Assembly (NCBI GenBank): GCA_965215605.1
Contig: OZ244070.1
Span: forward strand, 2,272,001-2,336,000
Reading direction: 5' to 3'
From: an uncultured Candidatus Binatia bacterium
GTDB lineage: Bacteria; Desulfobacterota; Binatia; UBA9968; JAJDTQ01
DNA length: 64,000 nt
The notes below the pieces were generated by a model, which had not been told where the DNA came from, searched no databases, and worked only from the letters and a program-made list of their open reading frames with translations. The translations under genes were made by a program, and so were the position numbers. Below, piece after piece: positions 5,605 to 48,938 of this stretch. Within the stretch, counting starts at the first letter, position 1. Each line of letters opens with the position of its first letter.

Positions 5605-8229
<2,625 letters not shown>

Positions 8230-8258
8230 CGCCTGGAGCCTGTTCGAGGCGACGGAAA

Positions 8259-8342
8259 CCGAGCACGCTCGCGTTCGATACCCACAAGGCGGTGAAGGCG
8301 CTCAGGGAGGCAGGTTTCGGCGACGCCCAGGCGGAGGCCTAC
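8259..8342 (+). pseudogene. N-terminal remnant of a DUF1640/CCDC90-like protein
   Basis: Translates as STLAFDTHKAVKALREAGFGDAQAEA. CCG sits where the ATG is expected and there is no coiled-coil body afterwards. Confidence 0.55.
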
Positions 8343-8385
8343 GGCGTCATTTGCAATGGCCGCGAGCCCTCGCTAGAATTTCCGG

Positions 8386-9465
8386 ATGCAGTCCCTCCTG
8401 AGAAAAAACATCGAAGATCTGGAAGGTTACACGCCCGGAGAGCAGCCCAAGCGGGCCGACCTCATCAAGCTCAACACCAACGAGAACCCCTATCCGCCGT
8501 CTCCACGGGTGTCGGCCGCCGTCCGCAAGGAACTCACCTCTGCCCTGCGTCTCTATCCCGATCCCGTGGCCCTGGAGCTGCGGAAACGGGCGGCGGTCCT
8601 CTACAACGTCCGCCCGGAGAACGTCATGGCGGGCAACGGCTCGGACGAGCTGCTGGCGATCCTGATGCGCTGCTACGTGGGCGAGGGTGACGGCGTGTCC
8701 TATCCGGTCCCCACCTACAGCCTGTACGAGACGTTGATCGCCATACAGGGCGGGCAGAGTCTGACGGTTCCTTATCCCGACAACTTCACCATACCGGCGC
8801 CGCTCTACTCCCAGTCGAGCAAGGTCACCATCCTGTGCAATCCCAACGCCCCTTCGGGCACCCTGGAGCCGGTGGGCGAGATCGCTCGCTTGGCGCGTTC
8901 GGTGGCCGGCCTGCTGATCGTGGACGAGGCCTACATCGATTTCGCCGACAGCGACGAAACCGCCATCGCGCTGGTCAAGCGCTTTCCCAACCTGGTGGTG
9001 CTGCGCACCTTTTCCAAGGCCTTCTCGCTGGCCGGCATGCGCGTCGGGCTGGCCTTCGGCGGCGAAGACATCGTGCGCAACATGCTCAAGGTCAAGGACT
9101 CCTACAACCTGTGCCGCCTGAGCCTCGCCGCCGCCGCGGCCGCCCTGGAAGACATGGAATGGATGCGCCGGAACGTCGGACGGATCCAGCGGACCCGCCG
9201 GACGCTGATCCGCGGCCTCCGCAGGCTCGGGTTCGAAGTTCACCCTTCCCAAGCCAACTTCGTGATGGCGCGGCTGGGCAGGGACAGCATCCGGTGGCTG
9301 CACGATGGGCTCCGGGACCGGGGCATCCTGGTGCGCTTCTTCGATATCCCCGAGCTTCGGAACATGATCCGGGTGACGGTGGGACGACCGCAGGAGATCC
9401 GGGCGCTCCTCACCGAGACGGAGGCCCTGCTCCAGGGCCGTGGCTTGATCCGGAAGGCGTCGTAG
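8386..9465 (+). CDS. hisC: Histidinol-phosphate aminotransferase
   Basis: KLNTNENPYPPSP, GNGSDE, NPNAPSG, VDEAY and RTFSKAFSLAGMRVG motifs. Confidence 0.95.
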   Translation: MQSLLRKNIEDLEGYTPGEQPKRADLIKLNTNENPYPPSPRVSAAVRKELTSALRLYPDPVALELRKRAAVLYNVRPENVMAGNGSDELLAILMRCYVGEGDGVSYPVPTYSLYETLIAIQGGQSLTVPYPDNFTIPAPLYSQSSKVTILCNPNAPSGTLEPVGEIARLARSVAGLLIVDEAYIDFADSDETAIALVKRFPNLVVLRTFSKAFSLAGMRVGLAFGGEDIVRNMLKVKDSYNLCRLSLAAAAAALEDMEWMRRNVGRIQRTRRTLIRGLRRLGFEVHPSQANFVMARLGRDSIRWLHDGLRDRGILVRFFDIPELRNMIRVTVGRPQEIRALLTETEALLQGRGLIRKAS

Positions 9466-33442: not shown

Positions 33443-33977
33443 AGCTGCAAAACGCAAGGGTACGGCTCTCCTGGCCGTGATGAACGAGAACTGCACCAGT
33501 TGCGCCGGGTCGCCCCTGTGCGAGGTCCACTGCCCGGTGGACGACTGCATCAACCTCCTCTACGAGGAGATGCCCGGAGGCGGCCTCAAGCCCTACCGGG
33601 TGTGGGTGGACAACGAGAAGTGCATCGGCTGCCAGATGTGCTACAGCGACGACCTCACCAAGATCCACGAGCACAAGACCACCGGCGTGGTCTACTTCGA
33701 GTACGGCAACCGCCTCTACGACGCCAACAAGAAGATCCTGGAGAAGGAGCAGGAGCCCAAGAAGAGCGAGCTCCAGCTCATCGGCACCGACTCGGAGGAC
33801 CGCCTCGACAAGAAGATCTGCCCCTGGGACGCCATCAGCATGGTGGAATACGAGGACGCCCTCGAGCTTTCCAAGCTCTACTACGACCCCGCGCTCATCT
33901 CCACCGAAGACGGCGTCTACTCCATCGGCGACAAGGGCAAGGAAGAACTCGAGGACCGGCAGATGGAGGGGTTCTAG
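33435..33977 (+). CDS. 2[4Fe-4S] ferredoxin-like protein with a long insertion
   Basis: CTSCAGSPLCEVHCP and CIGCQMC...(59 aa)...CPWDAI. Confidence 0.82.
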   Translation: MAEAAKRKGTALLAVMNENCTSCAGSPLCEVHCPVDDCINLLYEEMPGGGLKPYRVWVDNEKCIGCQMCYSDDLTKIHEHKTTGVVYFEYGNRLYDANKKILEKEQEPKKSELQLIGTDSEDRLDKKICPWDAISMVEYEDALELSKLYYDPALISTEDGVYSIGDKGKEELEDRQMEGF

Positions 33978-33984
33978 AGATACG

Positions 33985-36702
33985 GTGAAGGATCTCTATC
34001 GTTTCTGGGGAAAGGCCCGCCCGGCATCTCTCGACAACGGTCCTGACTGGCATCCGCTCGCTTTTCACTGCCTCGATGTGGCCGCGGTGGGAGAGGCTCT
34101 GCTCACTCAACACCGAGGCCTTGGCGAGAGCCTCTTTCGTCTGCTGGGTCTGTCGCAAGAGCAAGCCGTTCCGCTGATCTGTTACCTCCTCTGTCTGCAT
34201 GACGTCGGCAAATTCGCCAAAAAGTTTCAGGCCAAGGCACCGGAACTCTACCCCGATTGTTTCGGTGACGACCCGCAGGGATTCCCGCATCGTTACGATC
34301 ACGGCGCCGGAGGCTTGCGCATGTTCGACGCCGGTTCCGATGCGTTCGGGCTGCCGAAGGCAACCGGCAACGATGTCTGGCGCCCCCTGATTTCCGCGGT
34401 CACCGGTCATCATGGCTCGCCTCCGCAGCCGGGCAGTGAGGAAAGCCTGATCACGTTGCGAAGCGATTTCGGGCGCGCTGGGATCGAAAACGCCCACCGG
34501 TTCATGCTGCAAGCGGGTGAGCTGTTCGCTGTCCCCGCGGATCTTCCCTCCATAGACCGCCGCCGGTGTCGGCGCGCGTCACACGCGGTCGCCGGTGTGG
34601 CCGTGTTGGCCGACTGGATCGGATCGAATCAGGATTGGTTCCGATATCGTGAGCCGCTTCAAGACCTTGAGGCCTACTGGCACTATGCCCGGGAACGAGC
34701 GGGATGTGCGGTGACCGACTCGGGCGTGCTGCCGAAAGTCATAGGCGACCATCTTCGTTATGAAGACCTGATCGGCGCCGACTCAGCGCCGAGTCCGATG
34801 CAGGAATGGGCTCTGTCGGTGGACATTCCGACCGGCCCCGCACTCTTCATGATCGAGGACGAGACCGGCAGCGGGAAGACCGAAGCCGCGCTGATGCTTG
34901 CCCACCGGCTGATGATGTCTGGCCGGGCCGATGGTTTGTACGTCGCTTTGCCCACGATGGCGACGGCGAATGCCATGTTTGACCGGCTCGCGGTGGCTCA
35001 TCGCCATCTTTTCGCGCCGGGCGTCGAGCCTTCCATCGCGTTGGCCCACGGCGCTCGTGGCCTGCACAATGGCTTTCGGGCCGCCGTCGTCAAGGGCGGC
35101 CGATCGGAGGAACCCTATTCGGAATCCGCGGAGTCGGATCAAGAAACCGAAACGACTGCATCGGCCTCATGCGCCACATGGATTGCGGACGACCGCCGCC
35201 GCACGTTCCTGGCCGACGTCGGCGCTGGAACCATTGATCAGGCGTTGTTATCGGTATTGCCGAACCGGCACCAATCACTGAGGCTGTTAGGATTGATGCG
35301 CCGCGTGCTTATACTCGACGAGGTGCACGCCTATGACGCGTACATGCAGCGTGAAATGGAGCGGTTGCTCGAGTTCCAGGCGGGGCTCGGCGGCTCTGCG
35401 ATTCTTTTGTCGGCCACGTTGCCGAGGTCGATACGGAAACGACTGACCGATGCCTACAGGAGCGGTTTGGGTGAGAATTTGAACGGTGGTACCGCCAGCA
35501 TGGACTACCCGCTCGCCACCGTCTGCGCCGCCGACGTTCATTCAGGCACGAAGGTGAACAGTCGAGTCGAGCGCGCGCGTTCGCTTCCTGTCCGTTTTCT
35601 CCGGTCTTCCGACGACGCAATGAGCGAGATCCATCAGGCGGCCTGCGCCGGCAAGGCCGTTCTCTACATACGCAACACCGTCGACGACGTACTCGACGCC
35701 CATGCGGCCCTGGAGGCGCGGGGACTGGAGCCTCGCCTCTTCCATGCCCGGTTCGCTCTGGTAGACCGACTCAACATCGAAAAGGAGGTCGTCGCGTTGT
35801 TCGGCAAACACGGCAAGTCCGCCGAACGCGCCGGCCAGGTGCTCATCGCAACACAGGTGGTCGAGCAATCGCTGGACCTGGACTTCGATGTACTGGTCAC
35901 CGACCTCGCCCCCATCGACCTGTTGATCCAGCGGGCGGGAAGGCTTTGGCGGCACCATCGTCCAGAGCGCCGCGGACAGCCGGAGTTGCGGGTGGTAGCA
36001 CCGGAACCCGTCGCCAACGCGGACGAGGCATGGTTCGGCCGGGCGTTTCCGCGCGCACAGTACGTCTACCGAGATTACGCCCGCCTGTGGCTGACGGCGC
36101 GGACGTTGGAGGAGGCCTGTATCATCGAGAGCCCTGGCGGCATGCGGACGCTCATCGAAGCCGTCTACGGGGAGGATGCGGATCAATGCCTGCCGGGCGA
36201 ATTGCAGGGCAGCTTTTTCGACGCAGAGGGCAGGGCAGGCGCGGAGCGAGGTGTGGCGACGACCAACGTCCTGGACCTGGGCAAGGGTTATGTGCGGGAC
36301 GGCGGCGCCTGGGACAGAGATGTCCGAACGCCGACCCGACTCGTTGACGACCCACATGTCACCTTGCGGCTCGCTCGTGTCCGCGACGGCCGGATTGAAC
36401 CCTATGCCCACGGTGACGCTCCTCGCGAGCCGTGGGTCGGATGGCGGCTCAGCGAGGTGAACGTTGCGGCCCGGCGTGTTCGCGGCGAGGCCTTGCCGCA
36501 AGAACACGCTGAGGCCGCGCGAGTGGCCAAAGCGGACTGGACAAGGTACGATTCGGATAACATCCTTGTAGTGCTTGAGGAGACCGGTGTCCCCGGTGCT
36601 CCTCTGCGAGGGAAGGCGGTTTCCGGGAGCGAGCCTCAACGAGAAGTTCTCCTGAACTATGACTCCCGGAAGGGAGTGACGTGGGAGAAGAACGAAGAAT
36701 GA
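33985..36702 (+). CDS. cas3: Type I-E Cas3 HD nuclease-helicase
   Basis: WHPLAFHCLDVA, LHDVGK, GHHG, LADWIGS, TGSGKTEA, DEVH, SAT and QRAGRLWRH motifs. Confidence 0.97.
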   Translation: MKDLYRFWGKARPASLDNGPDWHPLAFHCLDVAAVGEALLTQHRGLGESLFRLLGLSQEQAVPLICYLLCLHDVGKFAKKFQAKAPELYPDCFGDDPQGFPHRYDHGAGGLRMFDAGSDAFGLPKATGNDVWRPLISAVTGHHGSPPQPGSEESLITLRSDFGRAGIENAHRFMLQAGELFAVPADLPSIDRRRCRRASHAVAGVAVLADWIGSNQDWFRYREPLQDLEAYWHYARERAGCAVTDSGVLPKVIGDHLRYEDLIGADSAPSPMQEWALSVDIPTGPALFMIEDETGSGKTEAALMLAHRLMMSGRADGLYVALPTMATANAMFDRLAVAHRHLFAPGVEPSIALAHGARGLHNGFRAAVVKGGRSEEPYSESAESDQETETTASASCATWIADDRRRTFLADVGAGTIDQALLSVLPNRHQSLRLLGLMRRVLILDEVHAYDAYMQREMERLLEFQAGLGGSAILLSATLPRSIRKRLTDAYRSGLGENLNGGTASMDYPLATVCAADVHSGTKVNSRVERARSLPVRFLRSSDDAMSEIHQAACAGKAVLYIRNTVDDVLDAHAALEARGLEPRLFHARFALVDRLNIEKEVVALFGKHGKSAERAGQVLIATQVVEQSLDLDFDVLVTDLAPIDLLIQRAGRLWRHHRPERRGQPELRVVAPEPVANADEAWFGRAFPRAQYVYRDYARLWLTARTLEEACIIESPGGMRTLIEAVYGEDADQCLPGELQGSFFDAEGRAGAERGVATTNVLDLGKGYVRDGGAWDRDVRTPTRLVDDPHVTLRLARVRDGRIEPYAHGDAPREPWVGWRLSEVNVAARRVRGEALPQEHAEAARVAKADWTRYDSDNILVVLEETGVPGAPLRGKAVSGSEPQREVLLNYDSRKGVTWEKNEE

Positions 36703-38396
36703 CCGATCCGGTGACGGCCGATGCGCCGCAGGCCGTCTTCAACCTGATCGACGAGCCATGGTTGCCCATGAGGCGCCGAAGCGGCGTTATCGAGTACGTG
36801 CAGCCGTGGCGAGTCACCGAAGGGATTGCGGACGATCCGTTTACAGCCTTTGCCTGGCCGCGACCGGACTTCAATGGAGCGGCGCACGAACTCTTGATCG
36901 GTCTGCTGTCCACCGCCGCCGCGCCCGACGACGACGAAGAATGGAAGAACTGGTGGCGGGAACCGCCGTCGCCGGACGTACTGAGAGAACGCTTCGCGAC
37001 GGTCGGTCACGCTTTTAACCTGGACGGCCCCGGCCCGAGGTTTTTGCAGGATCTCGGTGCGCTCGAAGGTGCTGAAGACAAGGAGATCGCGGCGTTGTTG
37101 GTTGACGCGCCGGGTGCACAGACCCTGCGCAACAACGCGGACTTGTTCGTGAAGCGGGGAGGCGTGCCGGTGCTCTCCCGCGCGGCCGCTGCAATGGCGC
37201 TCTTCACGCTGAACGCCTTCGCTCCCGCAGGTGGTGCTGGCCATCGCACGTCGCTTCGCGGCGGCGGTCCGATGACGACGTTGGTCGTCACAGACCACTC
37301 CGAATACGGCGCCACTCTATGGGGCCGGCTCTGGCCGAACATCGAAAGCCGGGAACAGGTCGAAGCTCGCGCAATAGGTTCGAAGCTTGATGAAGATCCC
37401 GGTACGGTCTTTCCTTGGCTCATCCCCACCCGTACGTCCGACCCGAAGGCTGGCGGCAGACCGACGACTCCTGCGGATGTCCATCCTCTGCATGTCTATT
37501 GGGGCATGCCCAGGCGCATCCGATTGTTGTTCGAGGATGCCGAGGACCGCAGATGCGGACTTACGGACGTCCGGGACTCCGTGGTTGTGCCACGGTATCG
37601 AACCAGGAACTACGGCAACAACTATTCTGACGGATTCCAGCACCCGCTGACACCATACTACCGTCCGAAGCCGACCTCGGCGGAAAAGCTCGCCGTCCAT
37701 CCGAGTCCCGGTGGCATCAGCTACCGCCTGTGGCCGGGGATCGTCGTCCCGAGCAACGACAACCTTCGCGAACCTGCGCAGGTAGTCCGGCAGTGGCACC
37801 AGGAACGGTTCCGCAACGCCCTGCGAGCACGTTTCGTCGCATTCGGTTACGACATGGACAACATGAAGGCGCGCGCCTGGCTCGAAGGCGAGGTGCCGTT
37901 ATGGCACTTCGACGACGACGTGGAAGAGTGGCTTTGTAAGTTCATCCAGAGGGCGACCGCGGGCGCCGACACGGTGACTCGCTTGATGACCGGTGCCGTA
38001 AAATCTGCTCTGTACGATCGTCCAAAGGACGCGGACGGCGACTATGGCTTTCTCGCTGAACGTTTCTACCGTGACACGGAAGCAGAATTTTATGCGGCTC
38101 TCGGCCAGTCCGTGTCGATGATCCAGGCGGACCCGGACAACGACGACCCCACCATGGAGGTGCGCCGGGGCTGGGCGCCGGTGATGGAGAAGGCGGCCTT
38201 GCGCTTGTTCGACGAGTACGCTCCCTCCGACGGCCTGGAGAATCGGGACATGCACCGTTACGTCAGGGCAAGGTTCTACTTGGCTCTTGCGCTTCGCGGG
38301 CGTGGGAAGAATGGCAAGGCCCTGTTCGAACGCGACCTCGGCATTCCATCGCCGGAGAGTTCGCGGCCACGTGCCCGCAAAAAGGAGGCTGCATGA
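36699..38396 (+). CDS. cas8e: Type I-E Cas8e (Cse1/CasA)
   Basis: FNLIDEPWLP, PRFLQD, GHRTSLRGGGP, WGMPRRIRL and HPLTPY motifs; ATGA overlap with cas3. Confidence 0.95.
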   Translation: MTDPVTADAPQAVFNLIDEPWLPMRRRSGVIEYVQPWRVTEGIADDPFTAFAWPRPDFNGAAHELLIGLLSTAAAPDDDEEWKNWWREPPSPDVLRERFATVGHAFNLDGPGPRFLQDLGALEGAEDKEIAALLVDAPGAQTLRNNADLFVKRGGVPVLSRAAAAMALFTLNAFAPAGGAGHRTSLRGGGPMTTLVVTDHSEYGATLWGRLWPNIESREQVEARAIGSKLDEDPGTVFPWLIPTRTSDPKAGGRPTTPADVHPLHVYWGMPRRIRLLFEDAEDRRCGLTDVRDSVVVPRYRTRNYGNNYSDGFQHPLTPYYRPKPTSAEKLAVHPSPGGISYRLWPGIVVPSNDNLREPAQVVRQWHQERFRNALRARFVAFGYDMDNMKARAWLEGEVPLWHFDDDVEEWLCKFIQRATAGADTVTRLMTGAVKSALYDRPKDADGDYGFLAERFYRDTEAEFYAALGQSVSMIQADPDNDDPTMEVRRGWAPVMEKAALRLFDEYAPSDGLENRDMHRYVRARFYLALALRGRGKNGKALFERDLGIPSPESSRPRARKKEAA

Positions 38397-38953
38397 CGAA
38401 CCCGACGGCATCCGCCAGGGCCGTTTCGGTCGCATTCGAGTGGTGGCGCGGGCTGAATCCGACGGATTCTGTGCCGTCCGGTCGCCAGCGGGCGGGCTCG
38501 GCGCGACTGCGGCGAGCCGCTACGCCCCTTGAAGTAATCCAGGAGCCGGAGGCGTTGCGGTTGATCGCGAGGCTGCCGCGTGACCCGGAGCGGGTCGCCA
38601 TTCTCGCGGGGGTGCTGGCCTTCGTGCGGGAGACGGAGACACAGCGCGTGGCCCGGGCCGTGGGCCGCACGGGGCTTGACGACGACAAGTCGGCCCTCCT
38701 GTCGGAAAACCGCTTTAGACGCCTGCTTCAGGTTCCTGTCTGCGACCTCCTGGAGCCGATGCGCCGGCTCGTTCGCATGACGAAGGGGACGCTCAACGTC
38801 CACGACCTTTCCAGTTCGATCCTGTATTGGAACGACGCAGTGAAGAAGCGCTGGATATTCGACTATTACGGGGTCGGTGCCGCAGGCGAGAGCGGTGCCG
38901 CGGGTTCGCCCACTCCTGACCGAATCGAAGAACGGGAACGCGACAATGGCTGA
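38393..38953 (+). CDS. cse2: Type I-E Cas11 (Cse2/CasB)
   Basis: ARLRRA, LSENRFRRLL and W..DYY motifs; positioned between cas8e and cas7. Confidence 0.92.
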   Translation: MTNPTASARAVSVAFEWWRGLNPTDSVPSGRQRAGSARLRRAATPLEVIQEPEALRLIARLPRDPERVAILAGVLAFVRETETQRVARAVGRTGLDDDKSALLSENRFRRLLQVPVCDLLEPMRRLVRMTKGTLNVHDLSSSILYWNDAVKKRWIFDYYGVGAAGESGAAGSPTPDRIEERERDNG

Positions 38954-39998
38954 CTTTCTGCAACTGCATCTCCTTACCGCCTACGGTCCTTCGAACCTGA
39001 ACCGGGACGATACCGGTCGGCCCAAGAGCGTGGTCTTCGGCGGCGTGCCGCGACTGCGTGTTTCTTCGCAGAGCCTGAAGCGAGCCTGGCGTGCCTCCGA
39101 GGTCTTCGCCGAGAAACTCGAGGGTCACCTTGCGGCCCGCACACAAAGACTCGGCAAGGACGTTCTTGATCGGCTGCGGGAAGACGGTGCGGACGAGGAC
39201 AAGGCCTTGGAGATCGCGCGAACAATTGCAGGCATCTTCGGAAAGGTCAAGAGCGAGAAAGACGATGCCCCAACGTTCACGGAGCAGCTCGCTTTCGTGT
39301 CTCCTGGGGAACAGGAAAGGGCGTTCGCGCTTGCCGGCAGGATGCTTGCCGGGGAAGTTTCCGAGAAGCCATCGCCGGATGACTTGCTTCGGAGCGCCGA
39401 TGAGGCGGCCGATATCGCGATGTTCGGGCGAATGCTCGCCGACAATCCGAAGTTCAACCGGGAGGCGGCGGTGCAAGTCGCACACGCCGTCACAACCCAT
39501 CGCGCTATGGCGGAGGATGACTACTACACCGCCGTCGATGATCTGAAGTCGCGCGATGAGCTGGACGACGCGGGGGCCGGATTCGTTGGCGTGCAGGAAT
39601 TCGGCGCTGGAGTGTTCTACCTCTATATCTGTGTGGATCGGGAGCTCCTACTGTCCAATCTGGACAATTTGCAGCCTCTTCATGATTCGAGCTTGGCCGC
39701 CCTTGTCGAAGCCGCCGCCACCGTCGCGCCGGGCGGTAAGCAGGCGAGCTTTGCCAGCCGTGCCCGCGCATTCTATGCGCTCGGCGAGAAGGGTTCGGCG
39801 CAACCTCGCAGCCTCGCTGCCGCATTCCTGAAGCCGGTGACAGGCGACGACCAGGGCGTCGAGTCCATCACAGCCCTTGAGGAGTTCCGGGACCGGCTCG
39901 ATGGAGCCTATGGGCCGTGCGCCGATGATCGCTACACGATGAACGTTGCATCCGGTGAGGGGACGCTTCGGGATCTCCTCGCATTCTCGATCGGGTGA
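38946..39998 (+). CDS. cas7: Type I-E Cas7 (Cse4/CasC)
   Basis: SNLNRDDTGRPK, RVSSQSLKRAWR, DIAMFGRMLAD and DYYTAVDD motifs. Confidence 0.96.
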   Translation: MADFLQLHLLTAYGPSNLNRDDTGRPKSVVFGGVPRLRVSSQSLKRAWRASEVFAEKLEGHLAARTQRLGKDVLDRLREDGADEDKALEIARTIAGIFGKVKSEKDDAPTFTEQLAFVSPGEQERAFALAGRMLAGEVSEKPSPDDLLRSADEAADIAMFGRMLADNPKFNREAAVQVAHAVTTHRAMAEDDYYTAVDDLKSRDELDDAGAGFVGVQEFGAGVFYLYICVDRELLLSNLDNLQPLHDSSLAALVEAAATVAPGGKQASFASRARAFYALGEKGSAQPRSLAAAFLKPVTGDDQGVESITALEEFRDRLDGAYGPCADDRYTMNVASGEGTLRDLLAFSIG

Positions 39999-40002
39999 CG
40001 CC

Positions 40003-40722
40003 ATGCGCTTTCTCGTCTTCACCCTTTACGCCCCTATGGCTTCGTTCGGCGAGATCGCGGTGGGGGAACGGCGCATGAGTTGGGCTCGGCCCGGTCGGTC
40101 CGCGGTCCTTGGTCTCGTGGCCGCGGCCCAGGGAATCGACCGCGTGGACGAGGGTGCCCACCAGCAACTGGATGCCGGTCTTTACTACGCCGTTAGGACC
40201 GATGCGGCGGGCCGGCCGCTCATCGACTATCACACGGCTCAGACTCCGAAGGCTCGCAAGGGGCAGAGTTTTGCGACCCGGCGGGAAGAATTGGAATCGG
40301 ACGATATCAACACGGTTCTTTCCAGCCGGGAGTGGCGGGCGGATGCGTACTTCACGGTCGCGTTGTGGCCGCGACCGGAACGGGCCATCGACCTTGAAGA
40401 GATCGCCGGGGCATTGCGCAATCCGCGTTTCACGCTCTACGTGGGACGCAAGGCAGCGCCGCTCGGTCTGCCCATGGCCCCCGAGATCATCGAAGCCGAC
40501 ACCTTCATGGCAGCCCTTGACGCCCGACGGCCGAATGACGAGGAACGAAGCGTCTTACAGCGAATCGGTATCGACGGGGTGGAGCCCGGCGCCATCGCGT
40601 TCGACCACGACGCGCCCGGAGCGCCGGTGGAAACGCGCGTCGAACGGCGGCGCGATGCGGTTGCGAGCCGCGTCAGGTGGCAGTTCGCCGACAGACTGGA
40701 ACGGGTCGTGATTCCCCGATAG
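40003..40722 (+). CDS. cas5: Type I-E Cas5 (CasD)
   Basis: LYAPMASFG, SAVLGLVAAA, DYHTAQ and LYVGRK motifs. Confidence 0.95.
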   Translation: MRFLVFTLYAPMASFGEIAVGERRMSWARPGRSAVLGLVAAAQGIDRVDEGAHQQLDAGLYYAVRTDAAGRPLIDYHTAQTPKARKGQSFATRREELESDDINTVLSSREWRADAYFTVALWPRPERAIDLEEIAGALRNPRFTLYVGRKAAPLGLPMAPEIIEADTFMAALDARRPNDEERSVLQRIGIDGVEPGAIAFDHDAPGAPVETRVERRRDAVASRVRWQFADRLERVVIPR

Positions 40723-40739
40723 TGCGAGGGTTGACGCGG

Positions 40740-41426
40740 ATGCTTTACCTTTCTCGCGCCCGCCTCAGACGCGATGCTTCGGTAAGCGCTCTCGCGCCAC
40801 TGCTGCTGGGAAAGACCGGAAGAAGCGACGCGTCGCAGCAACCGGGACATCATCTCGTCTGGTCACTCTTCGCCGACGGCTTCCAACGACAGCGCGATTT
40901 TCTCTGGCGTGAAATGGCACACGGCGTGTTCTACATCCTGTCGGCCCGTTGGCCGGAAGACCGACACGGACTGTTCGAGATCGCGGAACCTAAACGCTTC
41001 ACCCCTTCGCTTGCGGCCGGAGATAGCCTGGGTTTTGCATTGCGCGCCAATCCGGTCATCCGCCGCCGCCACGCGGACCGGCGGCGTTCCGTGAAGCACG
41101 ATGTCGTCATGGATGCACTGCGCAACTCGGAGGGCAACCGCGCCGGACGACGTCTGAGGGCCGTGCGCGAACAGGGCCTCGCATGGCTGGAACGGCAGGC
41201 AGGGAAGTCGGGGTTCGAGATACTGTCGGATGGCGTGCGAATCGATGGATACGAGCAACATCGCGTCACCCGCAAGGGGGCCGCGCGCGCACTGGAATTC
41301 TCAACCGTCGACTTCGAGGGACTGCTGACCGTACGCGACCCTGCGGCGCTTCTGACCGCCATCGGCCACGGCTTTGGCGCATCCAAGGCATACGGCTGCG
41401 GGCTCATGCTCATCCGCCGGGCATGA
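40740..41426 (+). CDS. cas6e: Type I-E Cas6e (Cse3/CasE)
   Basis: MLYLSR, HHLVWSLF, LRANP and the C-terminal Gly-rich loop GFGASKAYGCGLM. Confidence 0.95.
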   Translation: MLYLSRARLRRDASVSALAPLLLGKTGRSDASQQPGHHLVWSLFADGFQRQRDFLWREMAHGVFYILSARWPEDRHGLFEIAEPKRFTPSLAAGDSLGFALRANPVIRRRHADRRRSVKHDVVMDALRNSEGNRAGRRLRAVREQGLAWLERQAGKSGFEILSDGVRIDGYEQHRVTRKGAARALEFSTVDFEGLLTVRDPAALLTAIGHGFGASKAYGCGLMLIRRA

Positions 41427-41518
41427 GAGCAGGCGAGTAATGACCGCGACTCGCGCCGACGCGCATGGCCGGATCGGGAAGGGCCCCGGCGGACCTCAAT
41501 GGGCGGGAGAAACACCCC

Positions 41519-42714
41519 ATGGAATGGCAGGATGTCCGACGCCGGATCGATGAGGGCGAAGACCGGCACACGGAACTCAAGCGGGGGCTGGGCGATCTGT
41601 CCGCGGTCGGGAAGGCGATGTGTGCCTTCGCCAACACCGAGGGCGGCCTTGTCATTCTGGGAGTCGAAGACTCAAGGGGGATAACCGGGGTCGAGGAGGC
41701 GGCCGAGAAGGTGCAGGAACGCCTGAGTTCGTTTCTGCAAACGGGTTGCAGCGCACCTGTTCACGCTCGTACCGGCCGCTTCGAGGATTCAGCGGGCTGG
41801 GTGCACTGGATTGAAGTTCCTCGGCAACGCGGGTTCGAGCCCCTGCGTTACGACGGCCGGGTGTGGGTTCGTCGCGGGCGCTCCAGCGTTGAGCCGTCGG
41901 CGATGGAACTACAGGAACTCTACAATGCGTTCGGGTACATTCTCACCGAAGAACGCGCCGTCCTCGATGCAACGCCGACGCACATCGATCTGGAAGCCTT
42001 CCGCTCCTATCTGCAACGCCTGGGGTTCGACACGACGGACGATCCGCAACCGGACAGTGTAGACGACCTGCGCAACCGGGACGTGGTTGTCGAGATCGGC
42101 GGCGACTTGCGCGCAAGCCTCTACGGAGTCCTGGCCTTCGGGAAGGACCCGCAGCGCTACACGCGGACGCGCGACTTTCGCATCGAATGTGTCGCGTATG
42201 CGGGCGACGACCGCGCGTCCGAGGTATTGCAGTTAGCCGATGCGGCGGGGCGTCTCGACGAACAGGTCGAAAGGGCGACGGGATGGTTTCTCGGGCTCGG
42301 CCGCTACGAGTCGTATGAAAACCTTAGACGCGATGACCGTTACCTGTTGCCGCGGCGGGCCATTCGGGAAGCGTTGGCGAATGCGGTGACACACCGGGAC
42401 TATGCGATCACGGGTTCAAGAATCCTGTTCGAGGTGTTCGCCCGTCGCGTGGACGTGACCAGTCCGGGGACGCTGCCCAACCACATGACGGTGGAACGAG
42501 TCCGCGCGGGCGCCAACCCGCGATCAAGAAACGAATCCCTGGCGCACTTCATGGCCGGTATGGGATTCATGGAACGGCGTGGGCGCGGTTGGCTGATCAT
42601 GCGCAAGGAAATGCAGGCTTTCAACGGCACGGAGCCGGAACTGCTCCACGATGAACCCAATCAGTTCGTGCGCGTGACGTTTCTTCTCGACCCCCAAGGT
42701 AGCGGGAGGACGCT

Positions 42715-42718
<4 letters not shown>
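41519..42718 (+). CDS. Schlafen/AlbA_2 domain plus HATPase_c-like (RecG C-terminal type) protein inside the cas operon
   Basis: EGEDRHTELK, CAFANTEGG.VILGVED, REALANAVTHRDY, SPG.LP, SRN and ERRGRG motifs; stop overlaps the cas1 start (GTGATG). Confidence 0.88.
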
Positions 42719-43924
<1,206 letters not shown>

Positions 43925-43951
43925 GCCCAATGTTCCAATTCCCAGCGGCTT

Positions 43952-44590
43952 GTGACCTTGACCTCAATCACTAGGCATTTGGCAAAATGCTCCCTTCACC
44001 CTGAGCGGGTGATTTTTTTGGACATCGAGACCACCGGGCTGAATCCTTACCGTGACGAATTCACTGTGATCGGATGGGCGTACGGCGGTCACGTGAACAC
44101 CATGGTCAAAGGCATGGGTTCAGACCGGCTCTGTGAAGACCTCCGACGCGCGAGGTGGTTGGTTACGTTCAATGGGGTCCGCTTCGACACGAAGTTTTTG
44201 GCGCGAGCTTTCCCTCGGATAGCCCTACCGAGTGTCCATTTCGACCTCCTGAAACTCTGCCGACGAGTTGGACTGAGGGGCGGTCAGAAGGCGATTGAAC
44301 ATGTTCTTGGAATCGGCCAGAGAGACGAAGCGACAAGACTCACTGGTGCGGAAGCGGTGGAACTTTGGCGTCGATACGTCCAAGGAGACGGTGAGGCATT
44401 GCAGAGACTCATCCTGTACAACAGAGCCGATGTCGCAGCTATGGGACCGATCCTTGATGAAATCGTGCAACGAATGGGCCTTCCGCTGGATTCATCCGTG
44501 AAGAAAGTGCGTTTTAGGGATTGGTCAGCGCCGCCCGGTTGGCAAGTGTTGCCAGACACCGGGCCCTGTTCGGCGCAGTTACGGTTTTAG
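43952..44590 (+). CDS. DEDD 3'-5' exonuclease, RNase_H_2/YprB-like (start uncertain; in frame with cas2)
   Basis: ExoI FLDIETTG, ExoII TFNGVRFD, ExoIII YNRADV; GLRGGQKAIE and GAEAVELW family motifs. Confidence 0.85.
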   Translation: MTLTSITRHLAKCSLHPERVIFLDIETTGLNPYRDEFTVIGWAYGGHVNTMVKGMGSDRLCEDLRRARWLVTFNGVRFDTKFLARAFPRIALPSVHFDLLKLCRRVGLRGGQKAIEHVLGIGQRDEATRLTGAEAVELWRRYVQGDGEALQRLILYNRADVAAMGPILDEIVQRMGLPLDSSVKKVRFRDWSAPPGWQVLPDTGPCSAQLRF

Positions 44591-44711
44591 GGCGACAGGG
44601 TGATAAAGAGGGTTTGTTGGCCGATACGTTTTCGGTTTCTTCGGGCAATTGGCAATCCGTGTGTGAATCGTTGCCGAGAAACAGTAGGAATTCCACGTAC
44701 TTCCTCGAAGA
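44591..44711 (+). promoter_or_regulatory. CRISPR leader
   Basis: AT-richer non-coding 121 nt directly before repeat 1; contains an imperfect inverted repeat (TTTCTTCGGGCAA...TTGCCGAGAAA). Confidence 0.75.
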
Positions 44712-45488
44712 GCGTTCCCCGCCCGCGCGGGGATGAACCGGTGCTTTGTGTTCTCGATAGCTGCCGGGAATGGCGTTCCCCGCCCGCGCGGGGATGAACC
44801 GCGTGAGTGCGCCTCTGTGAGTACTCGGTCTGGGCGTTCCCCGCCCGCGCGGGGATGAACCGCAGCCCCCACCACGTATCGAGGCATCCAGCACGCGTTC
44901 CCCGCCCGCGCGGGGATGAACCGATCTTTAACTGTGCGGTAGCACCAACCACGAAGCGTTCCCCGCCCGCGCGGGGATGAACCGTGTCAAGGGACTACGC
45001 ACGACCGCTAGATATCGCGTTCCCCGCCCGCGCGGGGATGAACCGATTAGCCACGACGAACTGAAGAGCCTTCGCACGCGTTCCCCGCCCGCGCGGGGAT
45101 GAACCGGTCGGGCTCAAGGTCCAGGCCACCATGAGTCCGCGTTCCCCGCCCGCGCGGGGATGAACCGCCGTATACTACAGTCGCAGGTAATGACACCGGG
45201 CGTTCCCCGCCCGCGCGGGGATGAACCGCGACGTGGGAGGCTGTTCGAGAGATAGCGGGCGCGTTCCCCGCCCGCGCGGGGATGAACCGCGCACGTCGAA
45301 GCTCTGGGTTTGGATTGCCCAGCGTTCCCCGCCCGCGCGGGGATGAACCGCTCGCTCGGCCCTTTAGCCGCGTAGTCTGCGAGCGTTCCCCGCCCGCGCG
45401 GGGATGAACCGGAGCGTCAGATCGACCTGCTCGACGCCCGGATGCGTTCCCCGCCCGCGCGGGGATGAACCGGAGACGACAATGAAGC
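44712..45488 (+). CRISPR. Type I-E CRISPR array, leader-proximal part (repeats 1-13, spacers 1-12 and the 5' half of spacer 13)
   Basis: 29-nt repeat GCGTTCCCCGCCCGCGCGGGGATGAACCG, 32-nt spacers, 61-nt period from 44712 to 45444. Confidence 0.99.
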
Positions 45489-45670
45489 TGTCAATGGCAA
45501 CCGAAAACTGCACACATTTGGCAATCGAAAACTGCACACTTTCGAGAAGAGCGTCCGTGCAGAAGTGACGCTCTGCGGTTGGTTCGGTTCATGGGTCATG
45601 GTCTGGACGGAGGGAGCGGAGCGAGCGGAGTCCAGGCCATGACGGGTTGCAGATCGGCAGGACATGGCGC

Positions 45671-46468
45671 TCACAGGACGCCTCCCTGGCGAGGCTGCTC
45701 GTCGGCTGACCGCATGAGGTTGCGGTGTTCGCGCATCCTGTAGCTGTTGCCGCGGATGTTGACGATGTGGCAGTGGTGGAGGAGCCGGTCGATGAGGGCA
45801 GCAGCCATGACCTCGTCGCCGAGGACGCTGCCCCAGTCCTCGAAGCCCTTGTTGGAGGTGAGCACGGTGGAGGCGCGTTCGTGCCTGGCGTTGATGAGCT
45901 GGAAGAAGAGCACGGCGCCGTCCTGGGTAACCGGCAGGTAGCCGATCTCGTCCACCAAGAGCAAGGCGGGATAGGTGAGGACCCGCAGCCGGCGGGAGAG
46001 CTCGCCTGCGGCCTTGGCCTCCAGCAGCGACTCGATCAGTCCGGCCAGGGTTCCGTAGTAGACGCGGCGGCCGGATTCGGCGGCGGCGACGGCTAGGCTG
46101 ATAGCCAGATGAGTCTTGCCGACCCCGGGCGGCCCGAGAAAAATGACGTTTTCGCGGCGATCCAGGAAGCCGAGTTCGTGGAGGCTCTCGATCTGCTCGC
46201 GCTTGATGCTGGGCTGGAAGGCGAAGTCGAACTGGGCCAGGGTCTTCACGGCCGGCAGCCGCGACGAGCGCATGGCGGTCTGGAGGCGGCGGTTGTTGCG
46301 CAACCCGATCTGGGCGTCCAACAACTGCTCGATAGCCTCGCTGGCGGTGGCCGCCCCGCTGTCGGCCTGGGCCAGGACGTCGTCGACGGCCTCGAGCGCG
46401 CCCGGCATCTTCAGATCCGCCAGCATCGCCCGCAGCCGGTCGCGCCGGTTGCCTGCCTCGGCCCTCAT
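45671..46468 (-). CDS. istB: IS21 helper ATPase IstB
   Basis: FDFAFQP, GPPGVGKTHLA, LLVDEIGY, TSN, DRLLHH and GNSYR motifs; ATGA overlap with istA. Confidence 0.96.
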   Translation of the reverse strand: MRAEAGNRRDRLRAMLADLKMPGALEAVDDVLAQADSGAATASEAIEQLLDAQIGLRNNRRLQTAMRSSRLPAVKTLAQFDFAFQPSIKREQIESLHELGFLDRRENVIFLGPPGVGKTHLAISLAVAAAESGRRVYYGTLAGLIESLLEAKAAGELSRRLRVLTYPALLLVDEIGYLPVTQDGAVLFFQLINARHERASTVLTSNKGFEDWGSVLGDEVMAAALIDRLLHHCHIVNIRGNSYRMREHRNLMRSADEQPRQGGVL

Positions 46469-47487
46469 GACACCGCCTCCGCGTAGACCCTGAGCGAGCG
46501 CCGCTCGACGTCTACGGTGACGGGCAGGGGGCGCCGGGCTTGCTGTGGAAGCCTGTGCATACCAAGGCGCCGATACGGGCAACTCGCCAACGGCAGCAGC
46601 GCCTGCTGCTCGTCGCGCTCGAAGCGGTCCACCGGGCGCTCCCTGGTGGTGCCGTGCCAGCGCCGGTTCGCGGTTCCCTCAAGCCACAAGCGCGCCTGCT
46701 CGTTCAGGTCCTCGTCGTTCAGGAACTCCCGGCCGTAGAAGAAGTTGTTGCGGATGTAGCGGATCGGCCGCTCCACCTTGCCCTTGGTTTGGGCTCGGTA
46801 CGGCCGGCATGCCCGAGGCCGGAACCCCCAGTGCGCGGCGAACCGCAAGAAGTCCGCGTTCAACACCAACTCGCCCCCGCCCGCGCGGCCGTCCGACAGC
46901 ACCACCGTCCGCATCTGGTCGAACAAGAGCTCCTGCGGCACCCCGCCGAAGCACTCGAAGGCGCTCTCCAGCCCTTCGATCAGCACTGCCATCGTCTGCC
47001 GCCGGTAAAACCGCAGCCACAACAGCCGGGAGTGGCTCAGAACCATCACCAAAGCATGCCGCCGCCCCCAGGGAAGCGTGAACGTCGCAAAGTCCACCTG
47101 CCCCTGCCGTCCCGCCGGCGTCTCGAACCGCACCACCGCCTCCGCCGGCTCCCTTGGCCGCACCGCCCGAACGTACTCCCTCACACGGACGTACCCGCCC
47201 GTGTAGCCTGCCCCTCGTACCTCGTCGTACAGCCGCTTCGCCGACAACCGCGGATACTCCTCCAGTCGCGCCTCGATGATCCCCTTGTACGGATCCAGCT
47301 TGTGACACACCGGCGGCCTCGCCCTGTATCGCGTCCCGCCTCCCGACAGATCCCGGTCCAACTGTCCTGTCTCGATCCACTCGTGGATCGTCCGGCGACT
47401 CACCCCGAACCGCCGCGACAGCTCCGTCTTCGTTACACCCCGTTCCAGATAGTGCCTAAGCAGCATCCTCGTCTCCCATCCGTGCAT
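46465..47487 (-). CDS. istA: IS21 transposase IstA
   Basis: N-terminal HTH, KLDPYK, RFETPAGRQGQVDF, LFDQM and AQTKGKVER motifs. Confidence 0.96.
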   Translation of the reverse strand: MHGWETRMLLRHYLERGVTKTELSRRFGVSRRTIHEWIETGQLDRDLSGGGTRYRARPPVCHKLDPYKGIIEARLEEYPRLSAKRLYDEVRGAGYTGGYVRVREYVRAVRPREPAEAVVRFETPAGRQGQVDFATFTLPWGRRHALVMVLSHSRLLWLRFYRRQTMAVLIEGLESAFECFGGVPQELLFDQMRTVVLSDGRAGGGELVLNADFLRFAAHWGFRPRACRPYRAQTKGKVERPIRYIRNNFFYGREFLNDEDLNEQARLWLEGTANRRWHGTTRERPVDRFERDEQQALLPLASCPYRRLGMHRLPQQARRPLPVTVDVERRSLRVYAEAVS

Positions 47488-47607
47488 CTGTGCTCCGCTC
47501 CGTTCCTGTTGGTCTTGCCAACAGCCTGGACCCGAGCACTCACGCCAGCAATCAATGTGTGCAGTTTTCGATTGCCATAAATGGGAAATTTACAGTTGCC
47601 ACCAACA

Positions 47608-48938
47608 GAAGCGCAAGGACACCATCGAGCGTTCCCCGCCCGCGCGGGGATGAACCGGCGTCCTCCCCCGCTATCGTGACGGGCACTCCGCGTTCCCCGC
47701 CCGCGCGGGGATGAACCGGCGGTGTGTCCCACCGGCAAACTGCCAATGGGGCGTTCCCCGCCCACGCGGGGATGAACCGACTAGTAATTAGGGAATTTCA
47801 ACCCACTAACCGCGTTCCCCGCCCGCGCGGGGATGAACCGGAGATTTCGGCGTTCTCGATCCTCGCGTCCAGGCGTTCCCCGCCCGCGCGGGGATGAACC
47901 GGCCCTAAGTCGGCGGGGGAATCGAGCGTCTGAGCGTTCCCCGCCCGCGCGGGGATGAACCGTTTCTGCGACGGTCTGCTAGTTCGAACGCTCTGCGTTC
48001 CCCGCCCGCGCGGGGATGAACCGATACCCGGCCAGCGGATAGCGCGGCATCCGGCGCGTTCCCCGCCCGCGCGGGGATGAACCGCGAAGGATTTCCCCGT
48101 CGCCAGATCAAAAAAAGCGTTCCCCGCCCGCGCGGGGATGAACCGTCCAGCCGTAGCACGCTCGTTGATACGCGCACGCGTTCCCCGCCCGCGCGGGGAT
48201 GAACCGACTCGGATGGGTCGCAGACATTTCGATATGAGGCGTTCCCCGCCCGCGCGGGGATGAACCGCTGCTGGTCCACACAGGCAGCGGCCTGGCGATG
48301 CGTTCCCCGCCCGCGCGGGGATGAACCGCCTACCATCGCATGTGATGTAACTATTCCGCGGCGTTCCCCGCCCGCGCGGGGATGAACCGGCTTTGTGGAT
48401 CGTTTGTCCGGCTGAGTCTGCGCGTTCCCCGCCCGCGCGGGGATGAACCGCCTTGTGTCCTATCCATCGCTGGCTCCTCCTGGCGTTCCCCGCCCGCGCG
48501 GGGATGAACCGCAGCATCAGGCCGAGCAGGATCACCACCAGAAGCGTTCCCCGCCCGCGCGGGGATGAACCGGCCGGGTTCTTGCTGCAGCTGGTGTTCG
48601 GCACGCGTTCCCCGCCCGCGCGGGGATGAACCGTGTAAAGGGGCTACGCACGACAGCTAGATATCGCGTTCCCCGCCCGCGCGGGGATGAACCGGGTTCG
48701 ACGCAGCGGGAGTCCCCACCGTTCAAGCGTTCCCCGCCCGCGCGGGGATGAACCGATACGCACGTACGGGTTTGATAATTAGCCCACGCGTTTCCCGCCC
48801 GCGCGGGGATGAACCGGTGTCGGAATTCTGCTCAAACTGGTGCGCAAAGCGTTCCCCGCCCGCGCGGGGATGAACCGGCCAAGGAGTGGGACCCCCAGCC
48901 GCCCCGGTAGCGTTCCCCGCCCGCGCGGGGATGAACCG
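47608..48938 (+). CRISPR. Type I-E CRISPR array, trailer part (3' half of spacer 13, repeats 14-35, spacers 14-34)
   Basis: Same repeat with 61-nt period from 47629 to 48910; single-base variants in repeats 16 (47751) and 33 (48788); degenerate repeat-like tail to about 48993. Confidence 0.99.

Follow-up and report, generated by a model that had tools for sequence, protein, structure and literature searches.

What is a Schlafen-type gene doing inside a type I-E CRISPR-Cas operon, and does it serve that operon or work on its own account? The question arises from a 64,000-nt stretch of DNA (the window) of an uncultured Candidatus Binatia bacterium (contig OZ244070.1, positions 2,272,001 to 2,336,000), in which an open reading frame (ORF) at 41519-42718 on the forward strand encodes a 399-aa protein between cas6e and cas1e. 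The product is a stand-alone Schlafen-GHKL protein of the kind of TrlG, with its nuclease and ATP-site motifs intact. Such proteins have been called Schlatpases, after the SLFN plus GHKL (PF13749) supradomain of the SLFN-Argonaute protein RzAgo (bioRxiv 10.64898/2026.05.29.728809). The gene is probably an autonomous, horizontally mobile effector of growth arrest or defence, of the tRNase type and gated by ATP, which would have lodged at the seam between the interference and adaptation genes and be co-expressed with the cas genes.

Identity of the Schlafen-GHKL protein

Two domains were recognised by Pfam. SLFN_AlbA_2 (PF04326), the nuclease domain, covers residues 14-125 (41558-41893; 64.7 bits against a cut-off of 25.3 bits, E = 1.4e-17), and HATPase_c_4 (PF13749) covers residues 299-388 (64.2 bits against a cut-off of 26 bits, E = 1.1e-17) as part of a GHKL ATP-binding module, predicted to be of the Bergerat type, encoded at 42365-42682. 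The protein terminates 11 residues past the second match, and the Pfam search of its 399 residues returned no helix-turn-helix (HTH) or winged HTH (wHTH) family at E values up to 0.01. We collected relatives from a scan of one genome per species, which gave 125 loci, and kept the best 80 (51-87% identity over the best segment, at least nine phyla by genome labels). The 72 intact homologues among them are 390-416 aa long, with one of 448, and end about 10 residues beyond the GHKL domain.

The expected catalytic and nucleotide-binding motifs are all in place. The Ex4ExK nuclease motif reads E14-x4-E19-x-K21-R22 (residues 14-22, 41558-41584) and is followed by AFANTEGG at residues 36-43 (41624-41647); the N-box REALANAVTHRDY occupies residues 283-295 and ERRGRG residues 352-357. 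When the window protein was aligned with 54 of the 72 intact homologues (55 sequences), E14 was invariant, and E19 and K21 were conserved in at least 90% of sequences. The invariant residues of the GHKL module were E284, N288, H292, R293, Y295, S315-P316-G317, E352, and G357.

The predicted fold agrees with the Schlafen assignment. An AlphaFold2 model of the protein (pLDDT, the predicted local distance difference test, 86.5; pTM, the predicted template modelling score, 0.68) had its best Foldseek match in PDB entry 3LMM (DIP2311, E = 5.4e-19), with SLFN11, SLFN13, SLFN14, SLFN12, and SLFN5 following at E values of 5e-5 to 2e-3 and probability 1.00. Histidine kinases and pyruvate dehydrogenase kinases (PDKs) matched the ATP-binding module weakly (E of 1e-2 to 1e-1, probability 0.5-0.97). 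A profile search of PDB sequences likewise placed 3LMM first, at 3e-11 over both domains, and found SLFN chains at 1e-7 to 8e-4. A predicted homodimer (two copies, alignment A1, with ATP and Mg) scored 0.00 and 0.01 against a mark of 0.42, which speaks neither way on oligomerisation.

The wider family is large. A search of a representatives library gave 9,512 matches at E up to 1e-3, with 146 at E up to 1e-30, and the Atlas neighbours, clusters of 380-420 aa, carry both of these Pfam domains and often bear the wrong name "RecG". No NCBIfam family covers the 399-aa protein. In PADLOC, the pAgo and Aga models alone matched it, via the common Schlatpase module; the pAgo (prokaryotic Argonaute) model aligns to residues 29-375 (1.2e-18).

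Reading frame and junctions

The start at 41519 is preferred over an alternative in-frame ATG at 41465 for three reasons. DNA homology to related loci sets in at 41504-41520 for most of the closer loci among the 80; about 60 of the 72 intact homologues, counted by eye, share an ME, MD, or VE-W beginning at the position of this start; and a related metagenome contig carries indels of +1, -1, and -3 within 41464-41505, which makes this stretch non-coding. GGGAG lies at 41505-41509, ahead of the start, and the frame is open over its full length.

Upstream, a spacer of 92 nt (41427-41518), into which the indels of the related contig fall, separates the gene from cas6e. Downstream, the TGA stop (42716-42718) overlaps a GTG at 42715 and shares one base, its A, with the ATG at 42718. 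Both codons are candidate starts of cas1e (42718-43647, forward strand; TIGR03638, 362 bits, 1.6e-108). The ATG is the likelier one, since Cas1 of a same-genus operon (G026, L090) begins MIAPPRP at the equivalent ATG and a Shine-Dalgarno (SD) sequence, GGGAGGA, lies at 42704-42710, 7 nt ahead. This overlap occurs in the window only; in the other four I-E loci with the same gene order, the two genes seem to be separated by tens of nt or more.

A scan of 33500-44800 gave two promoter-like sites against 1.8 expected by chance and 12 terminator-like sites against 9.1 expected; neither kind fell on the forward strand of the cas6e-Schlafen spacer, and the scan says little beyond that. The short spacer with its SD sequence, the 1-nt overlap with cas1, the lack of signals above chance, and a GC content in line with that of the cas genes together suggest that the Schlafen gene may be co-transcribed and co-expressed with the cas genes.

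A preliminary description of this DNA, made from the sequence alone, had recognised much of the above. The gene of about 400 aa between cas6e and cas1 is there, with a complete I-E gene set around it. Its stop codon does overlap the cas1 start, its Schlafen-like motifs and HATPase-like module are supported by Pfam and by residues 14-21, 36-43, 283-295, and 352-357, and the missing C-terminal winged helix agrees with the lack of an HTH match. An accessory nuclease effector that acts by abortive infection, as proposed there, would be in keeping with the conserved Ex4ExK motif and with what has been published about prokaryotic Schlafens. Translational coupling to cas1, taken as a conserved trait, did not hold beyond the window.

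Selection on the gene

The ratio of non-synonymous to synonymous substitution rates (dN/dS) between the window gene and 12 homologues was 0.08-0.25, and 0.08-0.13 for all except the distant copy L057; in a thirteenth pair (L018), synonymous sites were saturated. Against the nearest relatives the ratio was 0.10-0.12 at dS of 0.7-1.0, and values were similar for copies inside and outside I-E loci. Intact copies are under purifying selection, with dN/dS of about 0.1.

Genomic settings of the homologues

To place the homologues, Cas genes around the 80 loci were surveyed by tblastn using the window's own Cas proteins as probes, and other neighbours were surveyed using probes taken from the loci themselves, together with a few Pfam and PADLOC scans. 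A full I-E operon with the order cas6e-Schlafen-cas1 was present at four of the 80 loci (L002, L009, L013, L018), which belong to at least two phyla. A 7.4-kb contig from metagenome sample X9 spans the whole cas6e-Schlafen-cas1 stretch at about 92% identity.

Relics of I-E systems, or divergent I-E genes, accompanied the Schlafen gene at a further 10 of the 80 loci. Fragments of cas3, cse1, and cas6e abut the gene in L008 and L011, the final 18 codons of cas6e are recognisable in L005 (a weak match, E = 0.017), an N-terminal cas1 fragment lies just downstream in L016, and fragments of cas5 and cas6e lie upstream in L017. A cas3 fragment was found in L012, L014, and L025 (weak in the last, E = 0.029), and a cas3 of 29-31% identity lies downstream in L001 and L021. 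In five of these loci (L005, L008, L011, L016, L017), the I-E genes have decayed around intact Schlafen copies. In the stretch L001 8001-12733, the closest homologue (86% identity, one in-frame stop) sits 86 nt upstream of a Cas3 of 1,152 aa with an N-terminal extension of about 290 aa. Next come cas7 and cas5, which belong to a divergent I-E-like system and show 28-35% identity to those of the window.

Five of the 80 loci lay inside type 1 bacteriophage exclusion (BREX) systems (L024, L041, L053, L057, L060). The Schlafen gene stands alone between pglX and pglZ in L057 and L060, stands there together with an ATPase gene in L041 and L053, and comes after brxL in L024. Other neighbours included type III methyltransferases (L027, L028, L032), a type I S subunit (L019), an ADP-ribosylglycohydrolase (L004), and, elsewhere, ordinary metabolic genes; intact copies were also found at loci where the survey probes detected no defence genes. 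At two Vicinamibacterales loci, the solo gene starts 5 nt after the ADP-ribosylglycohydrolase gene, with genes for Hsp70-like and TPR proteins on the opposite strand of the other flank (in L004, 6919-7995 and 9673-15279). This may be another neighbourhood of the defence type.

Genomes that carry copies 70-87% identical over the best segment are labelled Acidobacteriota, Gammaproteobacteria, Tectimicrobiota, Spirochaetota, Gemmatimonadota, Latescibacterota, and Rhodothermota, to name some. Among the copies of L001-L080, similarity at the DNA level begins and ends at the ORF ends, and this confinement across phyla points to horizontal transfer of a gene-sized unit. Searches of plasmid and phage collections returned 54 plasmid records and one phage record, all below 60% identity (27-29% for those listed), and found no carrier.

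Such a distribution does not agree with a dedicated CRISPR link, which the preliminary description had entertained: apart from the four loci with the I-E order, most homologues follow a TrlF/Ppl-like ATPase gene, lie in BREX systems, or are found among unrelated genes, and related I-E operons exist without the Schlafen gene. That description had itself named scattered, unrelated loci, not enriched near cas genes, as part of what would make the gene a passenger insertion. The homologues are largely scattered in this way, yet their loci are enriched for defence genes, and the presence of I-E relics shows the I-E setting to be ancestral for the window's own clade.

A TrlF-type ATPase partner

In 29 of the 80 loci, the Schlafen gene directly follows a gene for an ATPase of about 920-980 aa, on the same strand and with a gap of 8-41 nt. 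This upstream ATPase belongs to the TrlF family (355 bits against the cut-off of 350 bits for NCBIfam NF045780) and is related to the anti-phage protein Ppl, although it falls below the Ppl family cut-off of 1000 bits; its N-terminal third gave a PHP-like lead. The window gene has cas6e upstream of it rather than a TrlF-family ATPase.

The window's genome also encodes five distant Schlafen paralogues (26-32% identity), one of which directly follows a TrlF/Ppl-like ATPase. At this locus (G000:C1:1509046-1513168; L088 1399-3945, L082 1219-2658), the ATPase ORF precedes a Schlafen-HATPase_c_4 paralogue of 479 aa that is about 27-32% identical to the window protein, and the scores of the ATPase are 393 bits (TrlF) and 410 bits (Ppl) against the same cut-offs. 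The pair is a separate copy of the two-gene cassette. A comparable arrangement is found on Pseudomonas plasmids, where an annotated TrlF gene overlaps that of a 385-aa "RNA-binding domain-containing protein" that aligns end to end with the window protein (29% identity, E = 4e-37).

Phylogeny and history

A careful tree of 73 rows, from which the eight broken copies (L001, L030, L045, L059, L068, L074, L078, L079) were left out, gave the same key clades as a quick first tree. One clade of 25 rows (support 100/97) contains every I-E and I-E-relic locus. Nested inside it is the solo clade to which the window copy belongs (14 rows, 97/98); no row has an ATPase partner and the frame is open in every one. 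Its sister clade of seven rows (100/95) has the ATPase in all seven and includes L016 and L017, which together display the order cas6e relic, ATPase, Schlafen gene, cas1 relic. Deeper branches are mostly paired with the ATPase. The BREX copies include both cassette and solo states, in separate parts of the tree.

In the simplest history that we infer from this pattern, a cassette of a TrlF-type (PHP-ABC) ATPase and a Schlatpase would have inserted between the cas6e and cas1 genes of an I-E operon. Loss of the ATPase would have come next, and either the cas genes or the Schlatpase would have decayed later, lineage by lineage.

Related I-E operons and loss of the gene

Three of 60 genomes related to that of the window had a Cas6e match, all of them in the same genus. 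Cas6e and Cas1 genes adjoin directly, with no insert, in G006 and G005 (Cas1 84% and 80% identical, respectively). The third genome, G026 (Cas6e 84% and Cas1 97% identical), retains nothing more than an in-frame relic of 85 aa (L090 2340-2597), in which two in-frame deletions have joined residues 1-21, 130-136, and 338-393. With two of three same-genus I-E operons lacking the gene and the third holding a relic, the Schlafen gene fails as a core or signature gene of I-E. In the relic, the start, the SD sequence of cas1, and the 56 C-terminal residues are preserved, perhaps because the region serves cas1 expression; alternatively, its frame may be open by chance.

Broken copies are also found further afield, since eight of the 80 carry stops, truncations, or internal deletions. 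In L045, L059, and L068 (at about 8001-8850), internal deletions have taken out approximately residues 20-140, the Schlafen nuclease core, and left the GHKL half. These three copies and the G026 relic suggest that the nuclease part is what gets removed. Contigs from two runs of one study (X5 and X6) have a 139-nt frameshifting deletion in the Schlafen gene, which at depths of 2.2 and 4.3 is a hint only.

A second non-canonical gene, for an RNase_H_2/DEDDh-like 3'-5' exonuclease (43952-44590, forward strand; Pfam RNase_H_2 2.1e-29, PADLOC Cas-associated DEDDh 1.7e-6), follows cas2 in the window. Exonucleases joined to or adjoining I-E Cas2 are a known theme. The exonuclease gene is present after cas2 in G026 (82% identity), was not found in G005 or G006, and is absent from all four other cas6e-Schlafen-cas1 loci (L002, L009, L013, L018). 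It can be missing where the Schlafen gene is intact and present where that gene is a relic, so the two are independent; the idea of a new I-E variant defined by the Schlafen gene plus the exonuclease was rejected, as the two genes do not co-occur. A paralogue of the exonuclease (58% identical) lies elsewhere in the window's genome (G000:C1:1960432-1961028, L095).

Comparison with known systems

The window gene most plainly belongs to a class of Schlafen-ATPase homologues that the text of one report describes as "tightly associated with" type I CRISPR (Cluster 1), BREX (Cluster 2), and restriction-modification (RM; Cluster 7) systems (PMC13462974). Like that class, it combines a Schlafen domain with an ATPase beside type I cas genes, and the same three associations recur among our 80 loci; the article text, as distinct from its supplementary data, gives neither a mechanism nor a gene order for the class. 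The same report describes Cash, a type III CRISPR-associated Schlafen nuclease whose CbCash active site consists of E17/D22/K24 plus R25, an Ex4(E/D)xK motif (PMC13462974). The window protein shares the E-x4-(D/E)-x-K-R site, and SLFN11 likewise has an Ex4ExK catalytic site. According to the sections covered, Cash is switched on by cyclic tetra-adenylate (cA4) via a Csx15 sensor (PMC13462974). The window protein has a GHKL module in its place, with HATPase_c_4 as its sole second domain, and its host system, being type I-E, makes no cyclic oligoadenylate.

In overall layout the window protein is close to TrlG, encoded in the temperature-restriction locus trlR-trlF-trlG of Photorhabdus laumondii (PMC7554251). 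In the coordinates published there, AlbA_2 spans residues 14-128 and HATPase_c_4 residues 298-365 of TrlG, formerly mis-annotated as recG (PMC7554251), nearly the same positions as in the window protein, a likeness of published coordinates rather than of aligned sequences. The two also agree in a length of about 385-400 aa, the lack of an HTH, the "recG" mis-annotation, and the TrlF-family ATPase upstream, which 29 of the 80 window homologues have. Growth at 36 C becomes possible when trlG carries point, stop, or insertion sequence (IS) mutations or when the operon is deleted, and no trlF mutations were found among the growth-restoring changes reported in the part of the article covered (PMC7554251). 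TrlG is thus growth-arresting, since it is loss-of-function mutations that relieve the arrest at 36 C. Its described phenotype is growth restriction at high temperature, not phage defence, and the window copy differs in lying in a cas operon with no trlF beside it; no trlR turned up either, although no search was aimed at it.

RzAgo offers a mechanism for the same two domains in the same order. As set out in the preprint sections covered, its E-x3-N pair, E314/N318, holds the gamma-phosphate and Mg, and ATP binding leads to tetramerisation, which rebuilds an active Schlafen nuclease that cleaves tRNA (bioRxiv 10.64898/2026.05.29.728809). E284 and N288 of the window protein share the E-x3-N spacing, a likeness of spacing rather than of residues aligned to RzAgo. 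The window protein has no Argonaute sensor, so control by guide and target cannot apply to it. According to the same sections, most Schlatpases are small and have either no further domain or just an HTH, and defence systems exchange the module among themselves (bioRxiv 10.64898/2026.05.29.728809).

Among BREX systems, Schlafen-histidine kinase-wHTH proteins from at least 1,017 BREX taxa have been termed "backup suicidal effectors", in the part of the survey covered (PMC12839542). Homologues of the window protein with 56-74% identity lie between pglX and pglZ or after brxL in the five BREX loci, but the described form has a wHTH that the window subfamily lacks, and the host system here is I-E. 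The C-terminal wHTH of COG2865-type Schlafen-histidine kinase-wHTH proteins was similarly not found in the window protein. The best match in both structure and sequence over both domains, 3LMM from Corynebacterium diphtheriae, is a structural-genomics entry with no assigned function; it differs in its 583 aa with extra C-terminal parts and shares 19-21% identity.

Among prokaryotic Schlafens (pSlfns), the pSlfn-HisKinase type is the most frequent architecture, and defence genes are found near 69.6% of pSlfns. One census puts the share of stand-alone Schlafen-GHKL proteins at 34% of pSlfns, and another puts it at 58.6% of SLFN-domain proteins. The presence of AlbA2-wHTH proteins close to type I loci has also been described, and a preprint proposes them as class 1 accessory proteins. 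PrrC, a latent tRNA-cutting anticodon nuclease with a nucleoside triphosphatase (NTPase) module, is encoded inside the EcoprrI type I RM operon. The window gene resembles it in being encoded inside another defence operon (I-E in the window and in L002, L009, L013, and L018; BREX in L041, L053, L057, and L060), while the two folds are unrelated.

Proposed function and alternative explanations

By analogy with RzAgo, Cash, pSlfn5, and TrlG, we infer a route from ATP binding to growth arrest. Binding of ATP at the GHKL pocket (E284/N288) would lead to oligomerisation, which would pair the Schlafen domains into an active RNase. The metal-dependent Ex4ExK site (E14/E19/K21) would then cut tRNA and stop translation, so that infection would be aborted or growth arrested. 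The distribution suggests that the Schlafen gene acts on its own account, because it persists where cas genes have been lost and the I-E operon persists where the Schlafen gene has been lost. Several points weigh against this autonomous, ATP-gated effector. The solo form has no recognisable sensor domain to account for its being kept silent. The 385-aa Pseudomonas protein has Q at the position of E19, the second acidic position, and growth arrest by TrlG-type proteins need therefore not be nucleolytic. The gene is often lost, as the G026 relic and the deletions in L045, L059, L068, and a low-depth contig of X5/X6 indicate, and the window copy could follow. The neighbour survey was narrower than a full defence-gene census, and the tree is rooted at its midpoint alone, which leaves room for doubt that the cassette came before the solo form.

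What if the gene guards its host operon? A Schlatpase silenced by the I-E machinery, or sensing its products, would act as a backup in the manner of PrrC, a suicidal tRNase that fires when an anti-CRISPR blocks Cascade or Cas3 or when interference fails. PrrC in EcoprrI is the precedent. The gene's position inside an operon with which it would be co-expressed fits this idea, as does the persistence of the arrangement in the window, in four genomes of at least two phyla, and in a further metagenome contig. The same gene occurs inside BREX, between pglX and pglZ (L057, L060), and the label of "backup suicidal effectors" given in the BREX survey (PMC12839542) points the same way, as does the speculation in the sections covered of the Cash report that type I-linked homologues sense DNA-cleavage structures (PMC13462974). 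We nevertheless consider a guard unlikely, given that intact copies (dN/dS about 0.1) persist beside fragmentary cas genes or where the probes detected no defence genes, that the nearest I-E operon has discarded the Schlafen gene, and that the ancestral partner appears to be a TrlF-type ATPase rather than Cas proteins. A related proposal, which we hold to be rather more doubtful, would make the TrlF-type ATPase and the TrlG-type Schlatpase a widespread, unnamed two-gene anti-phage system, whose effector half was captured solo, time and again, by I-E operons (between cas6e and cas1) and BREX systems (between pglX and pglZ) as a PrrC-like guard. The solo Schlatpase would then use the host system as its sensor in place of TrlF, and would cut tRNA when Cascade/Cas3 or BREX is inhibited or overwhelmed.

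The gene might instead be a passenger, an intact-looking remnant of a mobile cassette that is tolerated, has no present function, and is drifting towards loss. Eight of the 80 copies are broken, the TrlF-type partner is missing in the window, a same-genus operon holds the 85-aa relic, and contigs of two runs have the frameshifting deletion; but a full-length open frame with all conserved motifs, dN/dS of 0.10-0.12 against the nearest relatives, and open frames throughout the 14-row solo clade make a mere remnant improbable. It is very improbable that the gene is a dedicated CRISPR accessory, whether a regulator of the cas genes or an adaptation helper that processes prespacers or RNA with Cas1-Cas2. 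Its place immediately upstream of cas1 with a 1-nt stop/start overlap, the annotation of wHTH-bearing family members as regulators, and the preprint's class 1 accessory proposal for AlbA2-wHTH might be taken that way. Against it, the whole subfamily (390-416 aa, one of 448) ends about 10 residues after the GHKL module with no HTH, the other four I-E loci do not share the overlap, most homologues are not beside cas1, two operons with 80-84% identical Cas1 do without the gene, and the operon with 97% identical Cas1 has lost it. Regulation of cas expression, which the preliminary description had also raised, was rejected, as the protein has no DNA-binding domain.

The surrounding operon and CRISPR array

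All genes of the I-E operon are on the forward strand. The operon begins with cas3, encoding the HD nuclease-helicase (33985-36702; Pfam Cas3_HD 4.3e-40, Cas3-like_C_2 5e-33), and continues with the Cascade genes cse1 to cas6e (36681-41426), each recognised by Pfam: cse1/cas8e (36681-38396; CRISPR_Cse1), cse2/cas11 (38393-38953; CRISPR_Cse2), cas7 (38877-39998; Cas_CT1975), cas5 (39946-40722; Cas_Cas5d), and cas6e (40677-41426; CRISPR_assoc, and TIGR01907 casE). Beyond the Schlafen gene and cas1e lies cas2 of the I-E type (43601-43924; Pfam Cas_Cas2CT1978 8.8e-34).

The CRISPR array, on the forward strand, is in two parts. Its first part (44712-45472) has 13 repeats of 29 nt with a period of 61, and the second (47629-48938) has 22 repeats. 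Between them is an IS21-family element on the reverse strand (45488-47608), with istA (46465-47487; rve plus HTH), istB (45671-46582; IstB_IS21 2.2e-79), and terminal inverted repeats of 55 nt. The element inserted into a spacer, leaving half-spacers of 15 and 20 nt, and divides a former single array into 13 plus 22 repeats. Two spacers, one on each side of it (44985-45016 and 48634-48665), differ at three of 32 positions, with 97% likeness between their 90-nt units. Repeated sampling of one target or duplication of a spacer would account for the pair.

Implications

The class to which the gene belongs is already covered by papers from 2025-26, which describe Schlafen-ATPase genes near type I CRISPR, BREX, and RM systems. 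Among the main texts of the articles covered, we found no publication of the cas6e-Schlafen-cas1 order, the TrlF link, or the series of reciprocal decay, and the literature covered contained no characterised solo form of a stand-alone Schlafen-GHKL protein. The reporting papers, in the parts covered, leave open how the Schlafen-ATPases linked to type I, BREX, and RM systems are activated (PMC13462974).

The locus and its relatives form a compact natural series of five states of one gene: with a TrlF-type ATPase, alone in an intact I-E operon, alone in BREX, alone after decay of I-E, and decayed in an intact I-E operon. This series speaks for a Schlafen gene that is selected for its own sake. 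It also supplies matched constructs with which independence of an embedded effector from its host system could be told apart from a guarding role. For the family, it suggests that effectors of this kind land at the seams of defence operons, and for the annotation of CRISPR loci it carries the lesson that a gene within a cas operon need not be a Cas component.

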